Positions 11,939-53,895 of a DNA stretch of 64,000 nucleotides are shown here, piece by piece. The first letter of the stretch is position 1; every line of letters starts with the position of its first letter. The notes below the pieces were generated by a model that saw only the letters and a program-made list of their open reading frames with translations, did not search any database and had not been told where the DNA came from. Both the position numbers and the translations under genes were made by a program. Source of the DNA: a virus (lineage: Duplodnaviria > Caudoviricetes); IMG/VR virus record IMGVR_UViG_3300037424_000723, positions 13,331 to 77,330 of that record. One strand, given 5' to 3'.

Positions 11939-13422
11939 TATCGCACCACCCCGCGCTGGTCATACCACGCTTGATTGACGTTGACAAACTGCTCAGCAAA
12001 CCCAGCGCCAAGTTGAGGCTCAGGCTTAGTTTCCTTTGGCCCGTCCTTTGCCTCTGCCGTGCGCCCGTCTACCTTTGCTTCTGGTTTGCCAACTACTGAC
12101 ATTGATTTGAGAAGGGCCACAAGGTCATAGCTCTCTTCTTCCTTTTCCTCGACTACCGGCTTTGTTTCCAGCGCCTTAAGGCGAGTGTCAACCGCTACAA
12201 ACATTTCCTTGATGGCATCGGTGAAACTTGCCAGGTCTTTGACCGTCAACGCCTGGGTTGCTTCCTTCTTTTCAATGCCGGCTTCATCGGCCTCTTTAGC
12301 CTTATCAGCCAAAGTTGCCTCAATCTGTTGGACTTTATCCTCTCCAAATGCTTTGACAAATTCATCACGTTTGTGAGCAGGTAAGCCCTTTTCTACTTCG
12401 CTCATACTGGACTCCTTGTGAATAATGCTAAATGCTAATTTATTGGCCGCTGCCCACAAAGGCAGAAACGTTATTTCTTTGGTTCTGTGACGAATGATAA
12501 TTGTCGGGTCGGCCTCATCCCGCTTAATCCATTCGTTTGGCATACCGTGCGAATTTTTATCCCACCCGGCTTTGACAATGCCCTCTGCTGCCCACTCCAT
12601 ACCAGGGTAGAAATGCCCAGCCGCCACAGGGAAGCCGGTGCTTTCATCAAAAGCGTGATAATCGGTAATACCCACTGCGTAAGGCACGTGCCACAGCCAC
12701 GCTTCCGGCATGTCCCACTCGCCTTTGTGCAAAGCTTCATCAAACTCTTTGTGGGATTCCGTGCTGATAATTTCAGGGGGGTTGTCACTGTCACGCCGGT
12801 TATTGGAGTATGCCGCAAGCCATCTATAGATATCGCCCTCTTTCCAGATATACAGCGATTGCGTATCAGGTTGATTGCCACTATCCCCGCCGGGGTTGTC
12901 CTGCTGTTTAACGGGTTGATTGTCGCCTGCTATCTGTTTAATAAGCGTTGCCGCTTTATCCTCGGTCATTTCCTCTTGAATACGAGTGCCAACTAAGGCC
13001 GCGTATTCATTAGCCAGGGCCACCAAAGCGCCGGCCTTGTCATCAGTATCGCTGTTCATAATGTTGCGTGACAAGCGCCCAAATTGATCGGTAAGCTCAT
13101 ACATCTCGTATTGCGCTTCGCGGGCTGCCTGTTCTGCCGCCAAGTCAGCAAAGGAGAGAGGGCCATGATCCATACCGTCAACCATTACAACGGGAACAGG
13201 ATCGCCATAGTAGTCTTTGGTGGTTTCCTCCGTTACCGCCTCGTCCTCGATTAAGTCCAGTTCCTTTTTGGGCTTATTTTCATTAGCCATTAAAGCAGCA
13301 ATTTGCCTTTGAGCCGCTTTATCATCAGGGTGTAATCCCAATCGCTTGCCTACTTTCTTTTTATCAGGGCCAACTTTATAGACAGCAACCTTACCATCTT
13401 CAGGGAATTTACCGTATGGCAT
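11938..13422 (-). CDS. Prohead protease / scaffold protein
   Basis: Protease-like core (RWLAAYSNNRRD...EIISTESH...LWHVP...KEITFLP) with a long charged C-terminal scaffold; sits before the capsid gene. Confidence 0.65.
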   Translation of the reverse strand: MPYGKFPEDGKVAVYKVGPDKKKVGKRLGLHPDDKAAQRQIAALMANENKPKKELDLIEDEAVTEETTKDYYGDPVPVVMVDGMDHGPLSFADLAAEQAAREAQYEMYELTDQFGRLSRNIMNSDTDDKAGALVALANEYAALVGTRIQEEMTEDKAATLIKQIAGDNQPVKQQDNPGGDSGNQPDTQSLYIWKEGDIYRWLAAYSNNRRDSDNPPEIISTESHKEFDEALHKGEWDMPEAWLWHVPYAVGITDYHAFDESTGFPVAAGHFYPGMEWAAEGIVKAGWDKNSHGMPNEWIKRDEADPTIIIRHRTKEITFLPLWAAANKLAFSIIHKESSMSEVEKGLPAHKRDEFVKAFGEDKVQQIEATLADKAKEADEAGIEKKEATQALTVKDLASFTDAIKEMFVAVDTRLKALETKPVVEEKEEESYDLVALLKSMSVVGKPEAKVDGRTAEAKDGPKETKPEPQLGAGFAEQFVNVNQAWYDQRGVVR

Positions 13423-42675: not shown

Positions 42676-43670
42676 TGCTACAAATAGACCACAAAAAGCT
42701 AAACCAGATAACCAAAAATGGATCGTTATTTTTATTCTCACCCGCAGAGGCAGCTACCTACTATGTGCAGGATGTAGAGGAATTATTAGCCGCCCCGGTG
42801 ATAGATTGGGGAGCCAGGTCACTAGATTCCAATATCACCCCAATGCGACCCGGTGAGCAGCCTACCTACGTGATAGCCCGGCCCGGTAACGGCAAAACGT
42901 CTTGGATGATTTACATGGCCCGTCGCCATGCTATGCGGATCACAGAACCTAAAAAATGTGTCATCTATGTCACCTGGGAAGAAACGGTAGAATCAATAGA
43001 GATGAGCATACAGGCCGGCGTAGACTATACCTCTGAGCAAGTGGCATGGGGAACGGTAGATATTGAGGCCGTGAAGCGCAATGCGGTTAAACGCGCCAAC
43101 CTGCCTATATTTATCATCGGCCAGTCGGCGGTTAAAGACAGAGACAAACGCAAACCCCCGATGACCTTAGAGCGCGTCTATGATACCATCCTGGCCTTAT
43201 ACTATGAGTTTGGAATTGAGCCGGTATTGATCTGCTTTGACTACCTGCAAAAGATACCCATTGAGCGTGCCAAAACCAGAATTGATGAAGTAACCGAGGC
43301 TGTATTCAAAACATCAGAATTAACCAAGATTATCAGAAGTCCGATATTGGTAGGCGCACAGGCCACCCGTGATGTAGATGACCAGGGCTTACCCATTCCA
43401 ACTCTGGCCGGCGCACAGTGGACAAGCTCAATTGAGCAAGAGGCTTTTAGGATGATCGGTCTACTCAGGCCGATAACCGTAGCCCCCAAGAATGGCGTAC
43501 CTTTGCAAACCATCACGGTAGACAACCGAGAATATACGGTAGACAAAAACCTAATGCTTTTGAGACTACTTAAGCAGAGAAAATACTTCCCCGCTAAATC
43601 AATCTATCCTGTACACTTTAAGCCTGATTTATTTGAGTTGTCAGATTATCAGATAATGGGATTGGATTAA
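42675..43670 (+). CDS. DnaB-like replicative helicase
   Basis: ARPGNGKTS, FDYLQ, GAQATR and SSIEQEA. Confidence 0.88.
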   Translation: MLQIDHKKLNQITKNGSLFLFSPAEAATYYVQDVEELLAAPVIDWGARSLDSNITPMRPGEQPTYVIARPGNGKTSWMIYMARRHAMRITEPKKCVIYVTWEETVESIEMSIQAGVDYTSEQVAWGTVDIEAVKRNAVKRANLPIFIIGQSAVKDRDKRKPPMTLERVYDTILALYYEFGIEPVLICFDYLQKIPIERAKTRIDEVTEAVFKTSELTKIIRSPILVGAQATRDVDDQGLPIPTLAGAQWTSSIEQEAFRMIGLLRPITVAPKNGVPLQTITVDNREYTVDKNLMLLRLLKQRKYFPAKSIYPVHFKPDLFELSDYQIMGLD

Positions 43671-44014
43671 TGAATCACGCCCCCGCTTATCACCGTTACC
43701 TCTACACCTGGCAATGGCGTTTCCGGCGCCGGCTGCGGCTGCTATGGGCCGGCCACAAGTGCGAGAATTGCGGCAGTCGCAAGGGCTTACAGGCGCATCA
43801 CCTAACATATGAGCGCCTTTATCATGAGCGCATATCCGATTTACAAATATTGTGCGAGGTATGTCACCCGCTAGCAGATGCCCAGCGCAGGTATGACAAA
43901 GCACTTCAAACCTATTGCGTCAAGCGATGGGGGCCGATGTGGGTACAAGTTGTTAGGCCAGATGAGGCTAAGGCGGAATTTGATAAGTGGTTGACAACAA
44001 AACAGGAGCAATAG
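43670..44014 (+). CDS. Small HNH endonuclease
   Basis: CENCG...QAHHLTY...LQILCEVCH. Confidence 0.85.
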   Translation: MNHAPAYHRYLYTWQWRFRRRLRLLWAGHKCENCGSRKGLQAHHLTYERLYHERISDLQILCEVCHPLADAQRRYDKALQTYCVKRWGPMWVQVVRPDEAKAEFDKWLTTKQEQ

Positions 44015-44016
44015 AA

Positions 44017-44595
44017 ATGAAAACCATCCTCTCTCTTTTTGATTATTCCGGCAATTGGTCTAAGCCATACCGGGAGGCTGGTTACAATGTCATTCAGGTA
44101 GACATCAAACTTGGTATTGATATTCTCACCTTTGATTATCAGGCCATCCCGGAAATTTACGGAATCCTGTGCGCTGTGCCTTGCACTGATTTTGCTGTAA
44201 GCGGAGCGCGTTGGTTTGCTGAAAAGGATAAGGATGGCAGAACTGAATTGAGCATTAGCCTAGTTAAAAAGTCTCTTGAGATTATCAATTACTTTAATCC
44301 GGTATTTTGGGCATTGGAAAATCCAGTAGGTAGGATAGCCAGATTAGTACCGGAGTTGGGTAAGACGAGTCTGATTTTTCAGCCATGTGATTATGGCGAT
44401 GCCTATCGCAAGCGCACATGCTTATGGGGTAAATTTAATCATCCCATCAAAAACCCAGTTGAGCCATTGGGTATTCGTAAGGGTCAACCCGATGAATGGT
44501 ACTCTAAAATGGGCGGCAAAAGTGAAAAGACAAAAGCTTATCGCAGTCAAACCCCGTTAAAGTTTGCACAAGCCTTTTATGAGGCAAATCAATAA
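44017..44595 (+). CDS. Short C5-cytosine DNA methyltransferase
   Basis: LSLFDYSG, AVPCTDF, ALENPVG and KRTCLWG. Start at MKTILS. Confidence 0.82.
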   Translation: MKTILSLFDYSGNWSKPYREAGYNVIQVDIKLGIDILTFDYQAIPEIYGILCAVPCTDFAVSGARWFAEKDKDGRTELSISLVKKSLEIINYFNPVFWALENPVGRIARLVPELGKTSLIFQPCDYGDAYRKRTCLWGKFNHPIKNPVEPLGIRKGQPDEWYSKMGGKSEKTKAYRSQTPLKFAQAFYEANQ

Positions 44596-44613
44596 TTCCC
44601 CCATAACAAAAAT

Positions 44614-44641
44614 AGAGCCTACTCGTTATTGAGTAGGCTCT
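44614..44641 (-). terminator. Intrinsic terminator for leftward transcription
   Basis: AGAGCCTACTC-gttatt-GAGTAGGCTCT with a U-run on the minus strand. Confidence 0.75.
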
Positions 44642-45033
44642 CCCCAAGAAACCTAAAACCTAGTGATAAAAAATTACCCCCGGTCAAGCGGGCCGGTACG
44701 CTTTTGTCACCTATAGTGGGCTAGGCTACATTAGACAATAACACGCACGTATAAAGAAATCCTCATTCTTCAACTTAAGTTTTGCCACAGTTTATTAGCC
44801 TGTCACCTCGCTTTCTTAGTTTCAAAGGTGAGCGCTTATTACTTCTGACTGTCGCCTGTTTGGGCCGTTGGTAAGTACGCTCGGTGATACGCACCTATTG
44901 ATAAACAGCGGGCCGGATTCGATTCCGGCTTGATCCTTTCACGCGATTCAGGGTTTACGTGTTCCCTCGCGTCCGTTCAGGTAGCACACGTTCCGATACC
45001 TACGATTCCTAACATCGCTGCCGCTGCTTATTC

Positions 45034-45537
45034 CTAAATATGAGACCAGGTTCTTTTACTTATTACATAGCATATAGTAACCTGGGTTACATTAAAGATA
45101 ACCGATAATTCTTTTGATGTATATTTTTTATCCTGATAGAACTTTCTAATTTGCAAGACCTGCTCTGGGTTTAATTTTGCGGTAGGAGTTTTGTTTCTAT
45201 TTATAAATTCTGGTATTCTTCTACCTTTTTTGATGGCATCTTGATTATTATCTTTATGAGTACCCAAGAATAAATGAGACGGATTGATACATTTGCGATT
45301 ATCACAGGTATGACAAACTAATATATCAATCGGTAAATCAATATCATTGGCTAAACTATATGCTACCCTTGAGGCAGTAATAAGATTACCGTCTACCCAA
45401 AATCTACCGTATCCTGAATTACCTACTTTTCCTTGCCATTCCCAACATTCATCAGGATTACCAATTTTTACTTTAGACCAAAATCTATTTATTTGGTCTT
45501 TACTTAATTTAGGTATATTTCTAATTTTTAATTTCAT
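45034..45537 (-). CDS. HNH endonuclease
   Basis: CWEWQG, GYG, ASRVAY and VCHTCDNRKCINPSHL. Confidence 0.92.
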   Translation of the reverse strand: MKLKIRNIPKLSKDQINRFWSKVKIGNPDECWEWQGKVGNSGYGRFWVDGNLITASRVAYSLANDIDLPIDILVCHTCDNRKCINPSHLFLGTHKDNNQDAIKKGRRIPEFINRNKTPTAKLNPEQVLQIRKFYQDKKYTSKELSVIFNVTQVTICYVISKRTWSHI

Positions 45538-45680
45538 TATTCACTTTTTAATGGGCCGGTAAATCCAATGTTTCTAGCCGACGGTTCTCTGGCGCTTTTG
45601 CGCCCTTGACATTCTGGCATAGTCGCCAGGGGATTTACCAGCCCAGTCAGCCCTTGCGGGTTGTGACCTTATTCATAATC

Positions 45681-45713
45681 GTTTCAATCCACGCCCCCCG
45701 TGTGGGTTGTGAC
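45681..45713 (-). CRISPR. Solitary type I-C-like CRISPR repeat, with a degenerate second copy at about 45635-45667
   Basis: GTCACAACCCACACGGGGGGCGTGGATTGAAAC. Then 13 nt later GTCACAACCCGCAAGGGCTGAC. No cas genes in the window. Confidence 0.65.
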
Positions 45714-45995
45714 CGGACTCCAATATGAACGATGTTTTGCCGATTGCCGCCATTCAACACGAGGGCCAAAACAATTAAAGCAGATGAATAAAAAACCCCT
45801 ACTTTCACCCATGTGGCCGTAGGTTTTAATCTGTCTGCCTTCGTTGTTTTGCCCACAATTCCGGCAAACATTTATTTGGGTTTTTTCTCGCTCATCAGTT
45901 ATGACGATCATAATAACCCTGTTGTTAAACTTTGCCAGCGCATGCCGCTTAAGCGTACACTTACCCCTCACTGGCTTGTAACCGTTTTTTAGCAC
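45684..45995 (-). CDS. Small Zn-finger protein whose stop codon lies in the CRISPR-like repeat
   Basis: CRNC...CFNC; ends SPVTTHTGGVD*. Confidence 0.55.
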   Translation of the reverse strand: MLKNGYKPVRGKCTLKRHALAKFNNRVIMIVITDEREKTQINVCRNCGQNNEGRQIKTYGHMGESRGFLFICFNCFGPRVEWRQSAKHRSYWSPVTTHTGGVD

Positions 45996-46422
45996 TAGGC
46001 TGGGTACAGTACGGTCAAACCCGCCGTTATTGGTCAGTCCGGTTTATCTGATCTTATCGGAGATAACGGCCCATTGGCCCTTTCTTCACTTCCCGTTTTT
46101 CCTAATATTGCAAGGCGGCCCAGGTACGGGATAAGCGACCTGTATTTTGCCCTAACTCGGCAATACTTCCCACTTCATATCCGATGAGTTTGTGTGACAC
46201 TAGGGCCATAATCATTGCGCCGATTACCCCCGGCGTTGGGGTTTGCCTCACTAAACCGTTTAGCCCATATAGAGCCTTGCGTCTACCCGTGCGTGATTAG
46301 CACGTAGCAAGTTATCACGGTTTATGAAGCTGTTAAGTTGGCTCAATTATTGCCTGTTCTTTTCGGGCGGTCTATCAATGATGCCATTTCCCTAAAGCGG
46401 TCTAATGATTAAGCCTGAAAAC

Positions 46423-46451
46423 AGTATAACCGATAATGGATTGAATTGCAA
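46423..46451 (-). promoter_or_regulatory. Leftward promoter for the Zn-finger/repeat/HNH transcript
   Basis: TTGCAA-17-TATACT with the ATCGGT discriminator motif. Confidence 0.7.
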
Positions 46452-46563
46452 TACTTTTTTGATTAAGAAAACTTAAAATTAAGCAAACTCATAAAAATAT
46501 GCTTGCATTTTTAATTCAGGTATGTTAATATTAGGTATCTTAATTTTCGAGGTATCAATGACA

Positions 46564-46605
46564 TCCTCCCCTGACAAGATGTCAGGGGTTTCCGACAGCC
46601 GGAAC
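46564..46605 (+). repeat. Twin-hairpin repeat, copy 1
   Basis: tcctCCCCTGACaagatGTCAGGGGtTTCCGacagcCGGAA. Confidence 0.75.
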
Positions 46606-46633
46606 TTATTTACAAAACGAGGCATAGCGTAGC

Positions 46634-49398
46634 GTGAGCGCAAAATCTTATCCTTATAGTTTGAGCAATATTCCCGGCAGTTGGAAGTACTTGCAAACGG
46701 CCGAGGAACCAAAGGCCAGTTTCGTTTGTCCAGATTGTGAAGAACGCAAATATCTACTAGATCATAGTGTCAATAGTGATGGAGCAGTATCCCCTAGCGT
46801 AATTTGTGATTGCGATTTTCACGAATGGATTGTCTTGGAAGGATGGAACCCTGATGGCAACGCATTGTGATATAGGAATATCTCCAAAGGTGGCCTCAGT
46901 CCTGGCTATAAAACCAACGATAGATTATTTGTGTAATGACTACTCAGATGGCGGTAGTAGCATCAGACAATCAGATGTTGATTTCGATTGGACATTGCCC
47001 GCCGCCGTTGATTGTCCGAAATGTATTAGGGTACGTGATTTGTGGCGAGGTGGGAAAACACTGAAGCAGGCTCGTAAAATTGTAAAATCATCCCCCGCCC
47101 AGCTAGAAGCCGGGATGGGAGCGACCAAACTTTAGAGAGGAGTAGGTAAGCCTTGCTCCTCCCCTGAGAATATCTCAGGGGTTTCCGCAAGGCTGGAAAT
47201 CTATGAGCAAACGAATTAACGCAGTAGTAACAGATGCTAAGTTTGATTTTATCGAAAGTGTCTCAAAAGGTAATCGCTCATTTGTTATCAACGAGGCACT
47301 GCGGGCGTTATTTGAAATGCAGCGTCTTTTTGGGATAACGACTTGGGGCGACAAATGCTTGATTGCTTACGAGATTATGTTGCTCTTTTCCGGCTCTCTC
47401 GCCGAGGCACAAGAGGCGCGGCAGGCGCTGGCAAGGCTACAGCAGTTATACCCGAAGAAGTGGCAGGAATTGATAAAGGATGGTAAATGATGACTAAAAC
47501 CCCCTACACTAAGCGCACGTTGCCAGATACCCCCATAAAAAAGGGGCAATGCTGGTACTCTAACAGTGACAACCGACGTATATTGCTCATTGAGCGTGTT
47601 GATATTGGCACGTTCAAAGCCTACGGAATCAACACAAAAACACTTCGCCCATTTGCCATTTCTATCCTGCGATTTGGCAGCGGTCGAGCAAGCGGGTTTA
47701 GCTTGCTAACGAGAGGTGAATGATGGCGATTGAGCTTAAATTAAACAGTGGCAAAATGAGAACAAGGGCCCGGGGGGAAGATTGGGAATGGTATACAGCT
47801 ACTGTCAATTTACTGGTGGTAATCCACGCCCACAACCGAACTGATACCGGACGCTGGGCATACGTTATCGGTTCATTGGCTGAATTGAAAAGCAAAAATA
47901 CCTATGTTGATAAAAATGAGGCGTATAAGGTAGTCATACAACGCCTCAAAATATTAGTGGAAGATTTATTAGCCGAGGTGAATGATGCACAATAAGCTAC
48001 CCACCCTGCTCGCTGAATTAAGCGAGCGAGCACCGGATGTGTGTAAATCGCTGGCCGGCTGTTATGAGATCGGTGTATACCGTTTTTGGATAGGTGGCTA
48101 TGATGAGCTATACGCCGTTGTTTTTGATGATAATTCCTATGCTGTAGGCCAACCCGCCCTAGACTGGTTGCAGGGCGCCCTGCAACGTGCGATTGAGGCG
48201 CGGGGGTGGTACTTTCTCATAGAGCGATGGCCCGACGAGGCGAGAGTAAAATTGGTACTGTTGCCATCTGGACAGCAACGGCATGCTGATGCCCCCCATA
48301 CAACAGTGGCACTACTAGCCGCCCTGGTGGCGGCGTTAAAGAGCGAGGTAAAATGACGTTGTTCAAAATAGGTGAACCGGTAACGTGGACTTCAACTGCG
48401 TCCGGGGTTGACAAGACAAAGCGGGGCGAGGTTTTGGTGATTATACCTGCCTTTACTCGCCCTTACAAGGTTATGTATAGATTTAGTCCCCAATGGCAGA
48501 CAAAGTACCACAATATCAGTGTGCCAGGCTATGGTATTTTACCCCGTAATCATGAGAGCTATGTAATCGCAGTACCGGCCAAAACCAGCAAGGGCAAAAC
48601 TAAACTGTATTGGCCGGTTGTGAGTTTGTTGGAAGAGGTGAATGATGCCTTACGATAGCGAAGTGAGCCGCTTACAAGGTGAGATAACCCAGCTTGAAAA
48701 AGAGATAGAGGCAATCCAAAATGCTATCGAGTATGTAAAATCTTACAGCGTAAAGCCTACTACATATTTATATAGCACTATCAACCGTTTAAAAGACAAC
48801 TTGGAGCATAAACAAATGAAGCTGTCAACACATCGGCAGCACACAAAGGAAAGTGGGGTAAAGTATTAATGCCCAGCGTCATATCACTACAGGCTAGAAT
48901 CTTACGGGTAAATCACATTTACTTATCTCATTACGTGTCTGGTTTTGATGACAATTTTGATATTCGGTTAAGTCAAAAACTAGCTGAGTTTGATTACCTG
49001 GATTTGTCTACCATTAAAAAGGTAGTCAAAAATATTAAGACAAACTTCTTTAGAGTCCATAAAGTAAATCGGGAACAATACGCACAACGATTATTTGATG
49101 ACTTAAGAGCTTGCGAGTTGCCAGGTGAGCAACCCAAAAAAGAGAAGGGTAAAGTAAAAAGATGACTAAAAAAGAAATTCAGCAACTAATGGCAATTGTT
49201 AGGCCGGCAATTATCGCGGTACATGGCCGTCAACCATTGACCTTAATCGGCTATGAGATTGGCTTGATTTATCAAAATACTACCAAGTGTTACCAATTAG
49301 CAGTAGATGGCAAAGATGGCAATAAGTTCTTTGTCGAGTTGGTAAACGACAAAAACAAAGTACCGCAGGTAACGCGGTTAGGGAAGGTGGGAGAATGA
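46634..49398 (+). other. Cluster of small hypothetical ORFs, including an RHH-like protein at 47203..47490
   Basis: Coupled ORFs; MSKRINAVVTDAKFDFIESVSKGNRSFVINEALR resembles an RHH. Confidence 0.6.
47157..47199 (+). repeat. Twin-hairpin repeat, copy 2
   Basis: tcctCCCCTGAGaatatCTCAGGGGtTTCCgcaaggctGGAAA. Confidence 0.75.
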
Positions 49399-50240
49399 GC
49401 AATATTCAACTCGAAAAACAGTATCCATTTTCTAGGCCTGGTTTAACTCTGCAAATTTTCATACTTGGTCTAATCGTTGTCAGCGGCTTAATCGCTCTGT
49501 TCTTTGCCGCTTTCCACGCCTTTAGATTGGTTGCGGAACCCACTCAGGCTTTTTTCGCCGCGCTGGTAATCGAAGCCGGCCTGATTGCCGAATGTCTGGC
49601 TATCATCAATAAGCCCCGCTCGGTTGCGCCCTGGTTGGGTTTGGTCATTAGCTACGTGGTATCAGGCACTTACAACTATACTCAGGCAGCAAAAGCTGGA
49701 GAAGGGTTGGGCGGTTGGGAGTTGGGCGCGTTGGCCTTTGGCCCGCTATCTGCGCTGGCTGTTGTCTCGCTTGCTTTTGGTAATGAGTTAAGAAGCTACC
49801 AGGAGCGGGTGGAAGATTGGAGCAAGACGCGGGCCGGTTGGGTGGAAGGTGAGTGGAGAAGATTAGAGACTTTGGCAACCGAAAGGGAACAAAAGCGGCT
49901 AGAAGTTGAAGCGCAACAGAAGCAAGCTCAACTCGAATTACAGGCAAAACAAAAACAAGCCCAGCTCGAAGCGGAGCAAAAACACGCCGAAAAAATGGCG
50001 AGAATTGAAGCGAAAAAAGATAAAAAAGTAACGCGAAATAAACCAACTAAAAAGCGAATCTCAAAGATAGAGAAGCGTGAAATATCAATCAGTATAATCC
50101 GCGAAAATCCGTTAATTTCGGGTGCTGAATTAGGACGGCAATTAGGTTCAAGCGAACGCACTGGACAAACAATTTTGAATGAACTTACCGAGGCCGGCGC
50201 AATCCATCGCAATGGATCGGGCTGGCAGGTGCTGCGATGA
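49395..50240 (+). CDS. Multi-TM membrane protein with coiled coil and C-terminal wHTH (DUF2637-like architecture)
   Basis: Three to four hydrophobic segments, a Q/E/K-rich coil and ISGAELGRQLGSSERTGQTILNEL. Confidence 0.6.
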   Translation: MSNIQLEKQYPFSRPGLTLQIFILGLIVVSGLIALFFAAFHAFRLVAEPTQAFFAALVIEAGLIAECLAIINKPRSVAPWLGLVISYVVSGTYNYTQAAKAGEGLGGWELGALAFGPLSALAVVSLAFGNELRSYQERVEDWSKTRAGWVEGEWRRLETLATEREQKRLEVEAQQKQAQLELQAKQKQAQLEAEQKHAEKMARIEAKKDKKVTRNKPTKKRISKIEKREISISIIRENPLISGAELGRQLGSSERTGQTILNELTEAGAIHRNGSGWQVLR

Positions 50241-50947
50241 GCAACATCTATGACGAATTATCCAAAGGTGAGGTATTCGGCTTCATTGACCCCCTCATAG
50301 CTGAAATTCAGCACTACATCAAAGGTCCCTCAACCGTGTTGAGCGTACCGGCCAGCGTGTGGAGCCGGGGCGATGTCCGCAAGTTCCTAAAGTCCAAAGG
50401 GTTAGACGCGTGGGGATTCGTGCTTATCGGGGATGACATCACATTCAGCGTTAAAAAGCAACAGGCTAAGTTGATCGAGATGTTGCTCAAAGATAATCAG
50501 CCGCCAGTTAAAAAGGGCTGGTGGGCATGGTGACAATGCAAAATACAACTAACTGGCAATTTAGCGATATGCCAACCGCACAAATTATCTATATCCGCCT
50601 TGATGCCATTAACGAGGTAACTGAGGCGATTATATTGATGTTAGGCGCAACTATCCGATTATTTGATAGCCTGAATAGATTACTGCAATTAACACTCGTT
50701 TTAATCGCCATTGTGTTGGAATGTGCTGAGATGGCAGTATCGGTTTGCAATCGGATTTATAGGGTTTATGCAGAGATTGACAGGCAATTAGTGAGGTGGT
50801 TTAGTCGGCTGGTCTATGTGCCAGTGTATCGGGGGATAGGCTAATGGACTTCGCAATCATCATAGCCACTTGCATCTGTTCGATTGGAGCTATCGCCGGA
50901 ATTGTGATTTTTATTATGGCTATTTTGTATATTGTGGATAAATTTTA

Positions 50948-52186
50948 ATGCTCACTCGCCTGATAATTGCCCTTACCATAATCACCATAGCCATCTGCGT
51001 TATATTCTCAGATGTGATCTCGGTATGGCTGCAAGTGGTAGCAATAATTATAGCGGTATTTTTGATGGGGGTTTCAGGTATCACCTTATGGATAGGCACA
51101 GAACGTGCCCGCAGCGAGAGAGAAGATAGATTATTGAAAGAAAATCAGCGCAAGGCAGCAGGGTTTACAACCCAGATAGACGGGTACGGGATGCTACATT
51201 TGATAAATATTATCAATGGACATACTCAAAATCTAACCCTTGACGCCAGAGCATACCGAAATGGGCATTATGAAGCGCCTACCCCCGATGAGGTAAAAAC
51301 CTTACACGCTATTTTAGCGTCTCGCCATTCTACTACTACCCCAAAAATGGTAGTAGAAGGCTCTACTACCGCTATTTCTCAGGTAGTAGAGGTTGATCTA
51401 CTGGCTATTTTCACTCAGCCTTCGCAAAGTTACGCTTTCATTGCCGGTCAACAGGTGGGTAAAACGTTCCAGGCCCGGCGCATTGCTCAACACTGGATTA
51501 ACTCAGGCATTACCCCTATTGTTATCGCCCCAAAATGGGATCGTGGGGAATGGGAAGGTTGTCGGTTATTTGGGGGTGAATATGATTTTGATAAAGTGGC
51601 CGGGGGGATGCGCCGGATTGAATACCTTGCCCAAACTCGCCATGCTAACAAAGAGATGAGCCACAAAGAACACCCTTTGCAACCCGTGTTTTTTGATGAT
51701 TGGACGGGCATCAGGGCGAAATTAGAACAGGATGCGGAGAAGTTTATAGTTGATGCCACCACGTTTTACGCCTCGGTAAATATCATCCTGTATTTTATGC
51801 TACACGCTGACACAGCAGCAACCTGGGGCGTTGGCAAGGTAGGGGCAGCCCTACATCAGAATTTTATCAAGCTATTTATTGAGCCAGGATTCAATGAGGC
51901 CGGAATGATTGACCGTACCCGAAATGTTGGCTGGCTCCTGATGGCAGGGCAGAGCAAAAAAGACCGGCGTCAAGTACGCTTGTTTAATGGTGTGGGGCAG
52001 CCGCTATTGATACCAGACTATGTAAATCAGCCAGTGACAATACAACCCCGTGATAGTGACGCGTTATTTGTTGATCTGGTAAAAATCGGTAGAAGTCGCA
52101 ATGAAGCCAGCCTAGAAGCGTGGGGGAGAACCTACGCCGGTAACTTGGTTGAGCGTGGTAAACGATTACTAGGGGAAATAGAATGA
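50948..52186 (+). CDS. Membrane-anchored P-loop ATPase (FtsK/TraB-like, divergent)
   Basis: Two N-terminal TM helices, AGQQVGKT Walker A and VFFDDW Walker B. Confidence 0.55.
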   Translation: MLTRLIIALTIITIAICVIFSDVISVWLQVVAIIIAVFLMGVSGITLWIGTERARSEREDRLLKENQRKAAGFTTQIDGYGMLHLINIINGHTQNLTLDARAYRNGHYEAPTPDEVKTLHAILASRHSTTTPKMVVEGSTTAISQVVEVDLLAIFTQPSQSYAFIAGQQVGKTFQARRIAQHWINSGITPIVIAPKWDRGEWEGCRLFGGEYDFDKVAGGMRRIEYLAQTRHANKEMSHKEHPLQPVFFDDWTGIRAKLEQDAEKFIVDATTFYASVNIILYFMLHADTAATWGVGKVGAALHQNFIKLFIEPGFNEAGMIDRTRNVGWLLMAGQSKKDRRQVRLFNGVGQPLLIPDYVNQPVTIQPRDSDALFVDLVKIGRSRNEASLEAWGRTYAGNLVERGKRLLGEIE

Positions 52187-52810
52187 CAAAGACCTATATC
52201 ACCATAACTATTTTAACAACGATGTTTTTTCAATTTGGCCTAACGTATTTTATCGGCATCTCATTACAGCATGACACTGGATTATGGTCAGTTATCACGA
52301 TTGCCTATTCCGTTGCATTGCCCTTTTGGTCACATCCCTTAGATGACTGGATTCACTTTCAAATCACCCTACACAAAGAACGCATCCAGCGCCGCCGGAA
52401 TTATGAACTATTCCGGGACGGTGTTAAATCCGGCTTAATTGCCACCGATGAGCAGTTCGATAGTGAGGCGAGGAAGGTGATTAAATGAAAATATTATTAT
52501 GGAAATGGCAACTATCAATTGAGATTACCCCCAAAGATAGGTACTATGAAATTATTGGGGGTTATACGGGAACCGTTATAGGTTGGACTTCTGACCCAGA
52601 GGGGGTTTTGGAAGAAGAACCTAAGGCAACCTTTAGGGAGATTAGTAAGCGTGAATACGAGAAACGCATAAGCGAATAACGGTTCGCTTTTGCAAGAGGG
52701 CAAAGTACCATGAGGCATTTTATTAAGTACTAATTGCTGATGACATACCCCTCATAATCGGTTATACTGAGGTCATAAGTAAATCAGTAGCAACTCAGGA
52801 GCAACGAAAA

Positions 52811-53895
52811 ATGAGCGCCACAACATACGATGCAAACGGAAACCAAGTAGGTAGCACATCTGGCATTTGCGCTCGTTGTGGCGCTCATATCAAGCACATT
52901 TTTACCTGGGACGGTCAAACCTACGGCTCTGAGTGTATCGAAGTTGTAACCGGCATTGGTCGAGATTATCAGGTTTTTAATGGTCGTAATCTGGATTTAG
53001 AAGCCAGCAAAGCCCGTAAGGCTCAGGCTGAAACTGATAAAGCTACTCGCCTCGCTGCTTATGAGGCCAAACGCCAGGCTGCCCGTGAAGTTCAGCAAGC
53101 TAACGTCAAGCGTTTTGAAGAAATAATTTACCTCCTAGAAAATAGCTCAGGTGACTTTTGCGCCTCGGTAGCTTGCCAAATTAAGCAAGCTGAATATTCA
53201 ACCGAACTTTACAATATCTTGAGTGATAGAGCTTTTGAGATAGTTAGCGAGATTTACGGCAAGACAGCAGGCCGCAAAGGTAGCAAGGGCTATGAGGCCA
53301 GAGTAAACGAGTTTTACCAAAAATACGGAGAGAAGAAGGAATAACCCCCCCCGGCGCTATCTGGGCAACAGGAGTAATGTGATGTTTTACGTAGAATTTC
53401 CCAAAAATGAAGGTATAGATTTTGACGGCGGTTTTGAATTTGAGTACCTGGCAAACGGCGGGGTTAAGGTTTACCCAATCTCACCAGAGGGTGAACCGTT
53501 CCGAGTATCACGAAAGATTTATGCCCAGATGTGTCAATATGCCAGAAATCAATTGCCGGGGTTGCAAGCCGAATGTGATGCAATGATGGCAGAAAGTAAG
53601 TATTAAAATGAATAACCCTACCTGCCCCCTATGCCACGCAGACAACCCGCAACCCGCAACCTTGATAGTTGGCAGCAGGCGCAAAGGTGACGGCTGGGAA
53701 GCGTATACCGGTTATGTCTGCGAGGTTCACGATCAAGAGTATCGTGAACTGATGCGAGTTACCAAACCTTGCCCGATGTGCAAAGAGCCAATGATTGCAA
53801 TCGGTGAAATATTTACCATTGCCGATGAGCCACAAAGTTGGCTACGGTGCGCCAAAGGACATTATAATTTATACTCAGATAAAGCTATTGAGTGA
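52811..53895 (+). other. Small operon of three hypothetical genes behind a repeated promoter/RBS module
   Basis: 52811..53344 (CARC...SEC), 53379..53606 and 53608..53895 (Cys-rich). Confidence 0.6.

Follow-up and report, generated by a model that had tools for sequence, protein, structure and literature searches.

The window analysed here, a 64,000-nt stretch spanning positions 13,331 to 77,330 of IMG/VR virus record IMGVR_UViG_3300037424_000723 (Duplodnaviria; Caudoviricetes), carries on its minus strand a solitary 33-nt sequence, R1, that resembles a type I-C repeat from a CRISPR array. R1 straddles the end of a small Zn-ribbon gene and lies upstream of an HNH gene. The record comes from sediment metagenomes; it is 77,330 bp long, has a G+C content of 45.4% and carries direct terminal repeats of 127 bp. 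By gene content (large terminase, tail fibre, helicases, DnaB-like helicase, DNA methyltransferases) it is a tailed phage, and its terminase shares only ~25–28% identity at best with those of isolates. An initial annotation of this DNA had seen no cas genes, and neither Cas5d nor Cas1 found a match in the whole phage record. The features at the center of the locus are listed here by window position.

45684..45911, minus strand: Zn-ribbon gene, 75 amino acids (CxxC...CxxC), whose last 9 codons and stop come from R1
45704..45714, minus strand: first copy of a duplicated 11-mer, GGTCACAACCC, which supplies R1 positions 1–10 and the codons (P)VTT
45681..45713, minus strand: R1, type I-C-like repeat read as a chimera, 33 nt; positions 1–10 phage-type, positions 11–33 with the loop, the stem's 3' arm, the cut site and a 5' handle of 11 nt, TGGATTGAAAC
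45669..45703, minus strand: apparent foreign insert, 35 nt; repeat positions 11–33 (23 nt) and 12 nt, GATTATGAATAA
45645..45668, minus strand: second copy of the 11-mer (itself at 45668–45658), extended into a hairpin of its own (GGUCA/CCC-GCAA-GGG/UGACU)
45669..45931, minus strand: 263-nt block (ribosome-binding site, Zn-ribbon gene, R1 and 12 nt), an apparent indel relative to a related contig of public run X2, with the joint at 45668>45932

R1 derives from a type I-C CRISPR repeat, with a match far above chance. The window and the whole 77,330-bp record each contain the 33-mer a single time, and none of 100 shuffles contains it. An array-locus scan of one genome per species, with the last 25 nt of R1 as query and the loop left free, gave at least 120 genome loci among the matches listed, mostly obvious arrays with a 33-nt repeat. 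The closest authentic repeat among these matches is held by two Chloroflexota metagenome-assembled genomes (MAGs), one of Brevefilum sp. (locus L036) and one of Ardenticatenaceae (locus L078). It agrees with R1 at 30 of 33 positions (90.9%, ungapped) and is identical to it over positions 8–33, which include the loop, the 3' arm, the cut site and the 11-nt handle; the differences, at positions 4, 6 and 7, all fall within the 5' stem arm. In the Brevefilum MAG an array of 34 repeats comes after cas3-cas5d-cas8c-cas7-cas4-cas1 on the same contig, and it is because the array adjoins this canonical operon that the repeat family is assigned to type I-C. Scored with a profile of authentic repeats, R1 ranks 1 of 154,596 phage windows, the runner-up being far lower, and the profile found no second repeat-like site elsewhere in the phage genome. 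The I-C-like 33-mer reported in the initial annotation is thus real and unique, and it matches authentic arrays, one with its cas operon beside it.

Comparison with the repeat family, which ends in GGGGGGCGTGGATTGAAAC (Brevefilum MAG G001, locus L036), also shows where R1 departs from it. Type I-C repeats are 32–33 nt long with an 11-nt handle behind the 3' stem arm, and R1 has this length and this handle; it shares the ACAC loop as well. Unlike the family members, R1 stands outside an array, as a single copy in 77 kb, its positions 4, 6 and 7 break three of the eight stem pairs, and 13 nt follow it in place of a spacer of 33–36 nt. The latter range holds for 93.5% of 1,297 spacers of the family (range 29–47 nt), in a survey that counted spacers of 20–50 nt only. 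The 3' half of R1 is present in Chloroflexota, Acidobacteriota, Lentisphaerota, Desulfobacterota, Gemmatimonadota and others. Since it is common to so many phyla, R1 says more about the CRISPR subtype than about the host: matching against known repeats, suggested earlier as a route to both, yielded authentic I-C repeats and a loose host prediction. Spacers from the 120 array loci gave only chance-level matches of 14–20 nt to the phage.

The sequence directly downstream of R1 provides insight into how it arose. The initial annotation had described a 13-nt stretch followed by a renewed repeat start, and both are there: 13 nt at 45668–45680, then GTCACAACCC again at 45667–45658. It had called the latter a degenerate copy of the repeat. 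The start does recur, but what recurs is an exact duplication of GGTCACAACCC over 11 nt (16 of 18 positions when extended), with exactly 35 nt between the two copies. Close 11-mer duplications of this kind number 4 in 64 kb, against 0.75 in shuffles. All three mismatches of R1 (within positions 4–7) are also present in the downstream copy, and from this sequence pattern the three 5'-arm "mutations" are best taken for phage sequence, which would make R1 a chimera. The first 17 nt of the second copy rank 7 of 154,596 for likeness to the 5' half of the repeat, yet they are a copy of the 5' part of R1; its last 16 nt rank 6,610 of 154,596 and are weakly repeat-like. The hairpin of the second copy (−9.3 kcal/mol) is no more stable than those of shuffles, and a UGG follows it in register. 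The 35-nt length of the insert falls within the usual spacer range of the repeat family, and the 12 nt GATTATGAATAA are possibly the start of the donor's spacer. Searches for the R1 variant in viral contigs returned 0 matches. An array with the ACAA-arm variant had 0 matches in 241 million metagenome records and 0 in viral contigs, and insert-free or related alleles had 0 in each of two viral-contig scans.

The Zn-ribbon gene itself records what its end may have looked like before the insertion. Deleting 46 nt (the insert and one copy of the 11-mer) puts the second copy in the frame of the gene, which would then end ...YWSPVTTRKG*, with a TGA at 45647–45649; a ...SPVTTRKG* tail is typical of the family, and the current end, with the insert, is ...SPVTTHTGGVD*. 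The homologue with the closest tail, P0004, ends SPVTTGT (DNA GTCACGACC), and VTT is therefore plausibly native to the gene, the coincidence otherwise being estimated at ~4%. Because the 5' stem arm is phage sequence on this reading, the canonical 8-bp hairpin of the repeat is lost in R1. The closest authentic repeat, with its ACAC loop, closes all 8 bp of the stem (−15.9 kcal/mol); the minimum-energy fold of R1 reaches −8.6 kcal/mol, as a hairpin in a shifted register that is no more stable than those of shuffles (z = −0.5). Where type I-C repeats have a G+C-rich stem of 7–8 bp, with the cut site at its 3' base, and a loop of 4–5 nt, five of the eight canonical pairs are possible in R1. The internal stem, earlier described as partly broken, is broken indeed, and more so than that wording conveys.

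An exhaustive HMMER search gave 54 homologues of the Zn-ribbon protein, of ~70 amino acids. The protein predicted earlier at 45684..45995 belongs to a real gene family, but its start is M29 at 45911, where the homologue alignments begin, and not 45995. The family has five invariant residues (C16, C19, C44, C47 and W54) and a near-invariant SP that stands directly before R1; beyond SP the tails vary from 1 to 25 amino acids. As had been noted, the open reading frame (ORF) ends within the repeat, with the stop codon at 45684–45686, and 30 of the 33 nt of R1 are translated. An AlphaFold model reaches a pLDDT (predicted local distance difference test) of 90.5, with the R1-encoded tail disordered. 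The protein has no match in Pfam or NCBIfam and none to an anti-CRISPR (Acr) or other named family; the PHROG it matches weakly has no annotated function, a Foldseek comparison of its structure with the PDB gave nothing below E = 0.001, and the protein atlas places it in hypothetical viral clusters only. At seven other loci the gene stands in runs of small phage genes, followed by the next gene or by unrelated sequence, and no repeat-like sequence lies near it. With no Acr family match and these seven loci repeat-free, its nomination as an Acr candidate in the initial annotation is weakened, and it draws on the position of the gene.

Three side observations concern the same family. Its motifs occur in the order CxxC, ESRG..FICF.CFGPRI.W, SP. 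Its genes are usually found within runs of small early-type genes. A CGTGTTGAATG sequence that had been pointed out 37 nt upstream was rejected as a coding coincidence, since it encodes the conserved GPRVEW motif of the family.

We argue fairly firmly that R1 is a recently captured fragment of a type I-C array, whose insertion where the Zn-ribbon gene ends duplicated 11 nt and left a chimeric repeat. The fragment would have been taken from an array of the host or of another mobile element, and its insertion would have been illegitimate, guided by microhomology or of an integrase type. Because the upstream 11-mer looks like the beginning of an I-C repeat, its junction with the insert would simulate a full-length 33-nt "repeat" whose 5' stem arm does not pair with the 3' arm. 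The same event would have shifted the end of the Zn-ribbon protein from ...SPVTTRKG* to ...SPVTTHTGGVD*. What R1 does today is a more tentative matter. We favor a neutral scar, or at most a weakly active decoy, over an optimised RNA anti-CRISPR (Racr), with a confidence that falls somewhat short of an even chance. Any activity would lie in the intact cut site and handle, offered to Cas5c on the transcript of the Zn-ribbon and HNH genes.

The variation seen among relatives bears on both parts of this interpretation. A JGI contig is 100% identical to the window across 3.6 kb, and the R1 region is identical in the phage populations of three data sets; because the population is identical in all three, there has been no time for decay. 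The population that carries R1 shows no variation able to reveal selection. In public run X2 a contig about 90% alike has the flanks and a 23-nt island that corresponds to the second-copy hairpin, and nothing of 45669–45931. This is a weak hint, given the 23-nt side: the comparison with the public runs X1 and X2 is one of contigs, in which neither gaps in the coverage of X2 nor joints that have a side of 23 nt amount to firm evidence. The R1 element was found in none of the relatives examined, so that the conservation check suggested earlier did not show conservation. A search of a phage collection matched the HNH gene only. Loci recovered through the Zn-ribbon gene (L125, L126) and through DnaB (L127) have no synteny with the R1 region, and among close HNH homologues none exceeds 59% identity and none exceeds 47% over most of the protein length. 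In a further relative (L132, JGI 3300020041) a methyltransferase gene with 86% nucleotide identity to window positions 44020–44602 is followed by sequence like 53345–53636; the 8.7-kb block 44603–53344 is missing at that place, being absent or elsewhere in that relative.

The strongest competitor to a scar is a working Racr. R1, co-transcribed with the Zn-ribbon gene, would be bound and perhaps cut by the Cas5c of the host at its intact cut site and handle, and would thereby titrate Cas5c or seed an aberrant Cascade on phage RNA, with the Zn-ribbon protein possibly a partner Acr. We consider this unlikely, though a good deal less so than the other alternatives below. The published precedent is RacrIC1, which lies 11 nt behind acrIC5 in one transcript, both inhibiting type I-C (PMC10651486). 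Like that pair and other viral solitary repeat units (SRUs; Camara-Wilpert et al. 2023, PMC10651486), R1 is a lone repeat of I-C type, and its phage has no cas genes. It follows a small phage gene directly and in sense orientation, probably sharing its transcript, with handle and cut site intact. Unlike them, its 5' arm is phage sequence and its hairpin is lost, it overlaps a coding region instead of standing 11 nt behind the gene, and a partial copy follows 13 nt downstream. Its partner is an uncharacterised Zn ribbon in place of a known Acr.

Recognition by Cas5c cuts both ways. Cleavage by this enzyme is described as sequence- and structure-specific; the enzyme chiefly recognises the cut site with the UGG right behind it, and the handle, whereas changes in the loop and the 5' overhang are tolerated, and mutations at the stem base inhibit cleavage (PMC8524198). 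Since R1 keeps all of these sequence determinants and the closing C3–G22 pair, binding by Cas5c is conceivable as judged from the sequence. The loss of the canonical stem counts against a decoy, as does the report that stem disruption abolished the activity of RacrIF1 (PMC10651486). Translation of 30 of the 33 nt, the lack of demonstrated conservation and the otherwise repeat-free Zn-ribbon family point in the same direction. R1 also accords poorly with the operational rules of SRUFinder, a program that masks ORFs, sets a floor of 90% for both identity and coverage and drops units that have partial copies nearby (PMC10651486). R1 lies inside the Zn-ribbon ORF over 30 of its 33 nt and is not intergenic. 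Its first 11 nt (16 of 18) recur 13 nt downstream, within the 100 bp considered. Its 30 of 33 ungapped positions give 90.9%, while its mismatch-free local match covers 26 of 33 (79% coverage), which SRUFinder would class as partial.

Several observations nonetheless weigh against a scar, and some of them also favor a decoy. Selection for a decoy would likewise preserve the perfect 26-nt end of R1, which, within an overall match of 30 of 33, holds precisely what Cas5c reads: the cut site, the UGG and the 5' handle. The placement of R1 in sense orientation behind a small gene mirrors acrIC5-racrIC1, and the Zn-ribbon gene, R1 and the 12 nt may move as one 263-nt block, a single indel. The closing pair C3–G22 and the pair C5–G20 are still possible in R1. 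The second copy keeps U23-G24-G25 in register and ranks 7th of 154,596, which is more than expected of a random gene end. The donor array, sought as the handle with the 12 nt, had 0 matches in the metagenome scan. In sum, the decoy of a host I-C system proposed in the initial annotation keeps its foundation, a solitary repeat of genuine I-C origin in sense behind a small gene, and is weakened by the missing hairpin and the translation of most of the element.

The 13 nt between R1 and the second copy raise another alternative, also put forward earlier in the form of a CreA-type regulator. A CRISPR RNA (crRNA)-like molecule that represses a host cas or toxin promoter would draw its 5' handle from R1, its guide from the 13 nt and its 3' handle from the second copy; or, as a weapon, the 35 nt would guide Cascade against insert-free siblings of the phage. 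We judge this improbable. Viral Cracrs do exist for type I-C, with shortened guides of ~18–22 nt that match host cas or toxin promoters; guides of cracrIF have a median of 19 nt and those of CreA/CreR measure 23–27 nt (bioRxiv 10.1101/2024.10.29.618823). The phage resembles these systems in its order of degenerate repeat, short spacer-like stretch and degenerate repeat, with the handle end conserved in the first unit and the 5' part in the second. The second-copy hairpin with the UGG in register and the AT-rich, promoter-like 13-mer would also fit. Unlike the known guides (~18–27 nt in all), the phage stretch is only 13 nt, far below them and shorter than any of the 1,297 spacers surveyed, the smallest of which has 29 nt, and the phage's second unit also reads as the original gene end. 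No cas or toxin promoter match was found. Neither the 120 array loci nor the complete I-C locus of the nearest genome contained a match of at least 9 nt flanked by TTC as a protospacer-adjacent motif (PAM). As for the siblings, the insert-free allele as reconstructed has a TTC 12 nt upstream, yet only 4 of the 12 PAM-proximal guide positions match it. The related contig, moreover, seems to hold the second copy alone. The CreA-type proposal is therefore not sustained, for want of guide length and of a PAM-flanked target. As a side observation, a site at ~14230 in contig C41 of the Brevefilum MAG (L138/L139), upstream of cas3, matches the 13-mer at 10 of 13 positions; its PAM is wrong (CCT), seed position 4 is mismatched, and the match is at chance level.

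The two similar starts could alternatively be the remains of a virus-borne mini-array, a former repeat-spacer-repeat unit used against competitors through the Cas proteins of the host, in which ~22 nt of spacer would have been deleted and the second repeat eroded. Both copies have the same variant 5' arm, and when the second copy is aligned in register, 20 of its 33 positions agree with an authentic repeat (counted from the sequence), which fits the profile ranks. Such a history is quite improbable. It would require 26 nt of the first repeat to have escaped all erosion when the entire 3' half of the second was lost. The pair as it stands comprises one repeat, a 13-nt spacer and a second copy whose 3' half ranks 6,610, where a mini-array has at least two intact repeats around a spacer of normal length. 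The second copy also reads through as a sensible gene end, and it is apparently alone in the related contig.

One particular route for the capture deserves separate mention. The 35-bp insert and the 11-bp duplication could be the footprint of off-target integration by the I-C Cas1-Cas2(-Cas4) of a host into replicating phage DNA, which we regard as very improbable. On this route the host's own array, cut so that the piece spans a repeat-spacer junction, would have supplied the prespacer, and integration would have been aimed at the phage site that best mimics a repeat start and is able to fold into a hairpin. That Cas1-Cas2 can integrate spacers off target is known (Nivala et al. 2018, as cited in PMC6698737). 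The phage locus resembles such events in the spacer-length insert of 35 bp, the direct duplication of the target and a repeat-start-like, hairpin-capable site; it differs from them in that the target is phage DNA and that the duplication is 11 bp and not of repeat length, and this last point counts against the route.

The outcome matters in different ways. If R1 is a scar, as we favor, it is a clean, dated case of a phage gaining a fragment of a CRISPR array (35 nt inserted between copies of an 11-mer, completing a chimeric repeat), and it bears on the origin of SRUs and on how many of the "SRUs" in databases function. If off-target integration were its source, this would be one route by which SRUs, the raw material of Racrs, arise in phages. 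Were R1 active, Racrs would extend to uncultivated sediment phages, an I-C decoy would need only the cut site and the 5' handle, without a hairpin and even inside a coding region, and an uncharacterised Zn-ribbon family would be nominated as a possible partner Acr. Repeat elements embedded in coding sequence escape searches that mask ORFs, such as SRUFinder. Neither outcome alters a major open question.

R1 belongs to a minus-strand unit that stands among plus-strand genes. The unit runs in the order promoter-like site, leader, Zn-ribbon gene, R1, structured HNH leader, HNH gene, non-coding stretch and terminator, and its remaining features are these.

46423..46451, minus strand: promoter-like site (TTGCAA, 17 nt, TATACT), 9/12 match, possible start of the unit
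45553..45644, minus strand: HNH leader, a 14-bp stem (45644–45631 with 45566–45553) around a structured loop of 64 nt, immediately ahead of the HNH start codon
45034..45537, minus strand: HNH_3 homing-endonuclease gene, with Pfam and PHROG matches
44614..44641, minus strand: terminator-like hairpin, an 11-bp stem then a U-run, closing the unit

The orientation of R1, in sense with the pair of Zn-ribbon and HNH genes, and the HNH gene downstream are as first reported. The "consensus promoter" at 46451–46423 does not bear that name: it is a 9/12 match, of which the region has 7 against 6.5 expected in shuffles. The 5' leader that follows (45912–46420, ~510 nt) is not significantly structured (z = −0.85), while the fold of 45538–45760, which includes the HNH leader, has z = −2.74. 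The ~390 nt downstream of the HNH gene (44605–45033) are non-coding, with z = −2.3. Neither 44605–45033 nor 45996–46420 (~430 nt) gave a convincing ORF, an Rfam match or database relatives. Rfam found no family and no group I intron, at gathering thresholds across the whole window and at E-values up to 10 in 44400–46800, and a search of the phage DNA found no tRNA or tmRNA.

The position of R1 between two cistrons, upstream of this strongly structured HNH leader, would suit a Cas5c-dependent processing site that parts the Zn-ribbon message from the HNH leader and confines expression of the endonuclease to I-C hosts. Beyond this position nothing speaks for such a site, the genome has no other repeat-like site, and of the explanations weighed here we hold it the least probable.

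The unit looks like a mosaic, possibly a mobile cassette. The HNH_3 gene has 31–35% G+C against 45% for the phage, and the AT-richness of 45034–45537 suggests, from composition, a recent arrival. Several observations from the public runs concern the same stretch. In X2, the stretch 44605–46244, which takes in the HNH gene, R1, the Zn-ribbon gene and most of the leader, forms a separate 1,640-nt contig of depth 112 with 0 differences from the window, and further contigs diverge from the window at 46244 and 46264. Both X1 and X2 contain a form that lacks 45977–46210 (234 nt of the leader), and 45562–45645 (84 nt of the HNH leader) seems absent from the related contig. Finally, two unrelated genes for HNH-type nucleases lie within 1.5 kb of each other, at 43670–44014 on the plus strand and at 45034–45537 on the minus strand, with a phrog_757-type DNA methyltransferase gene between them.

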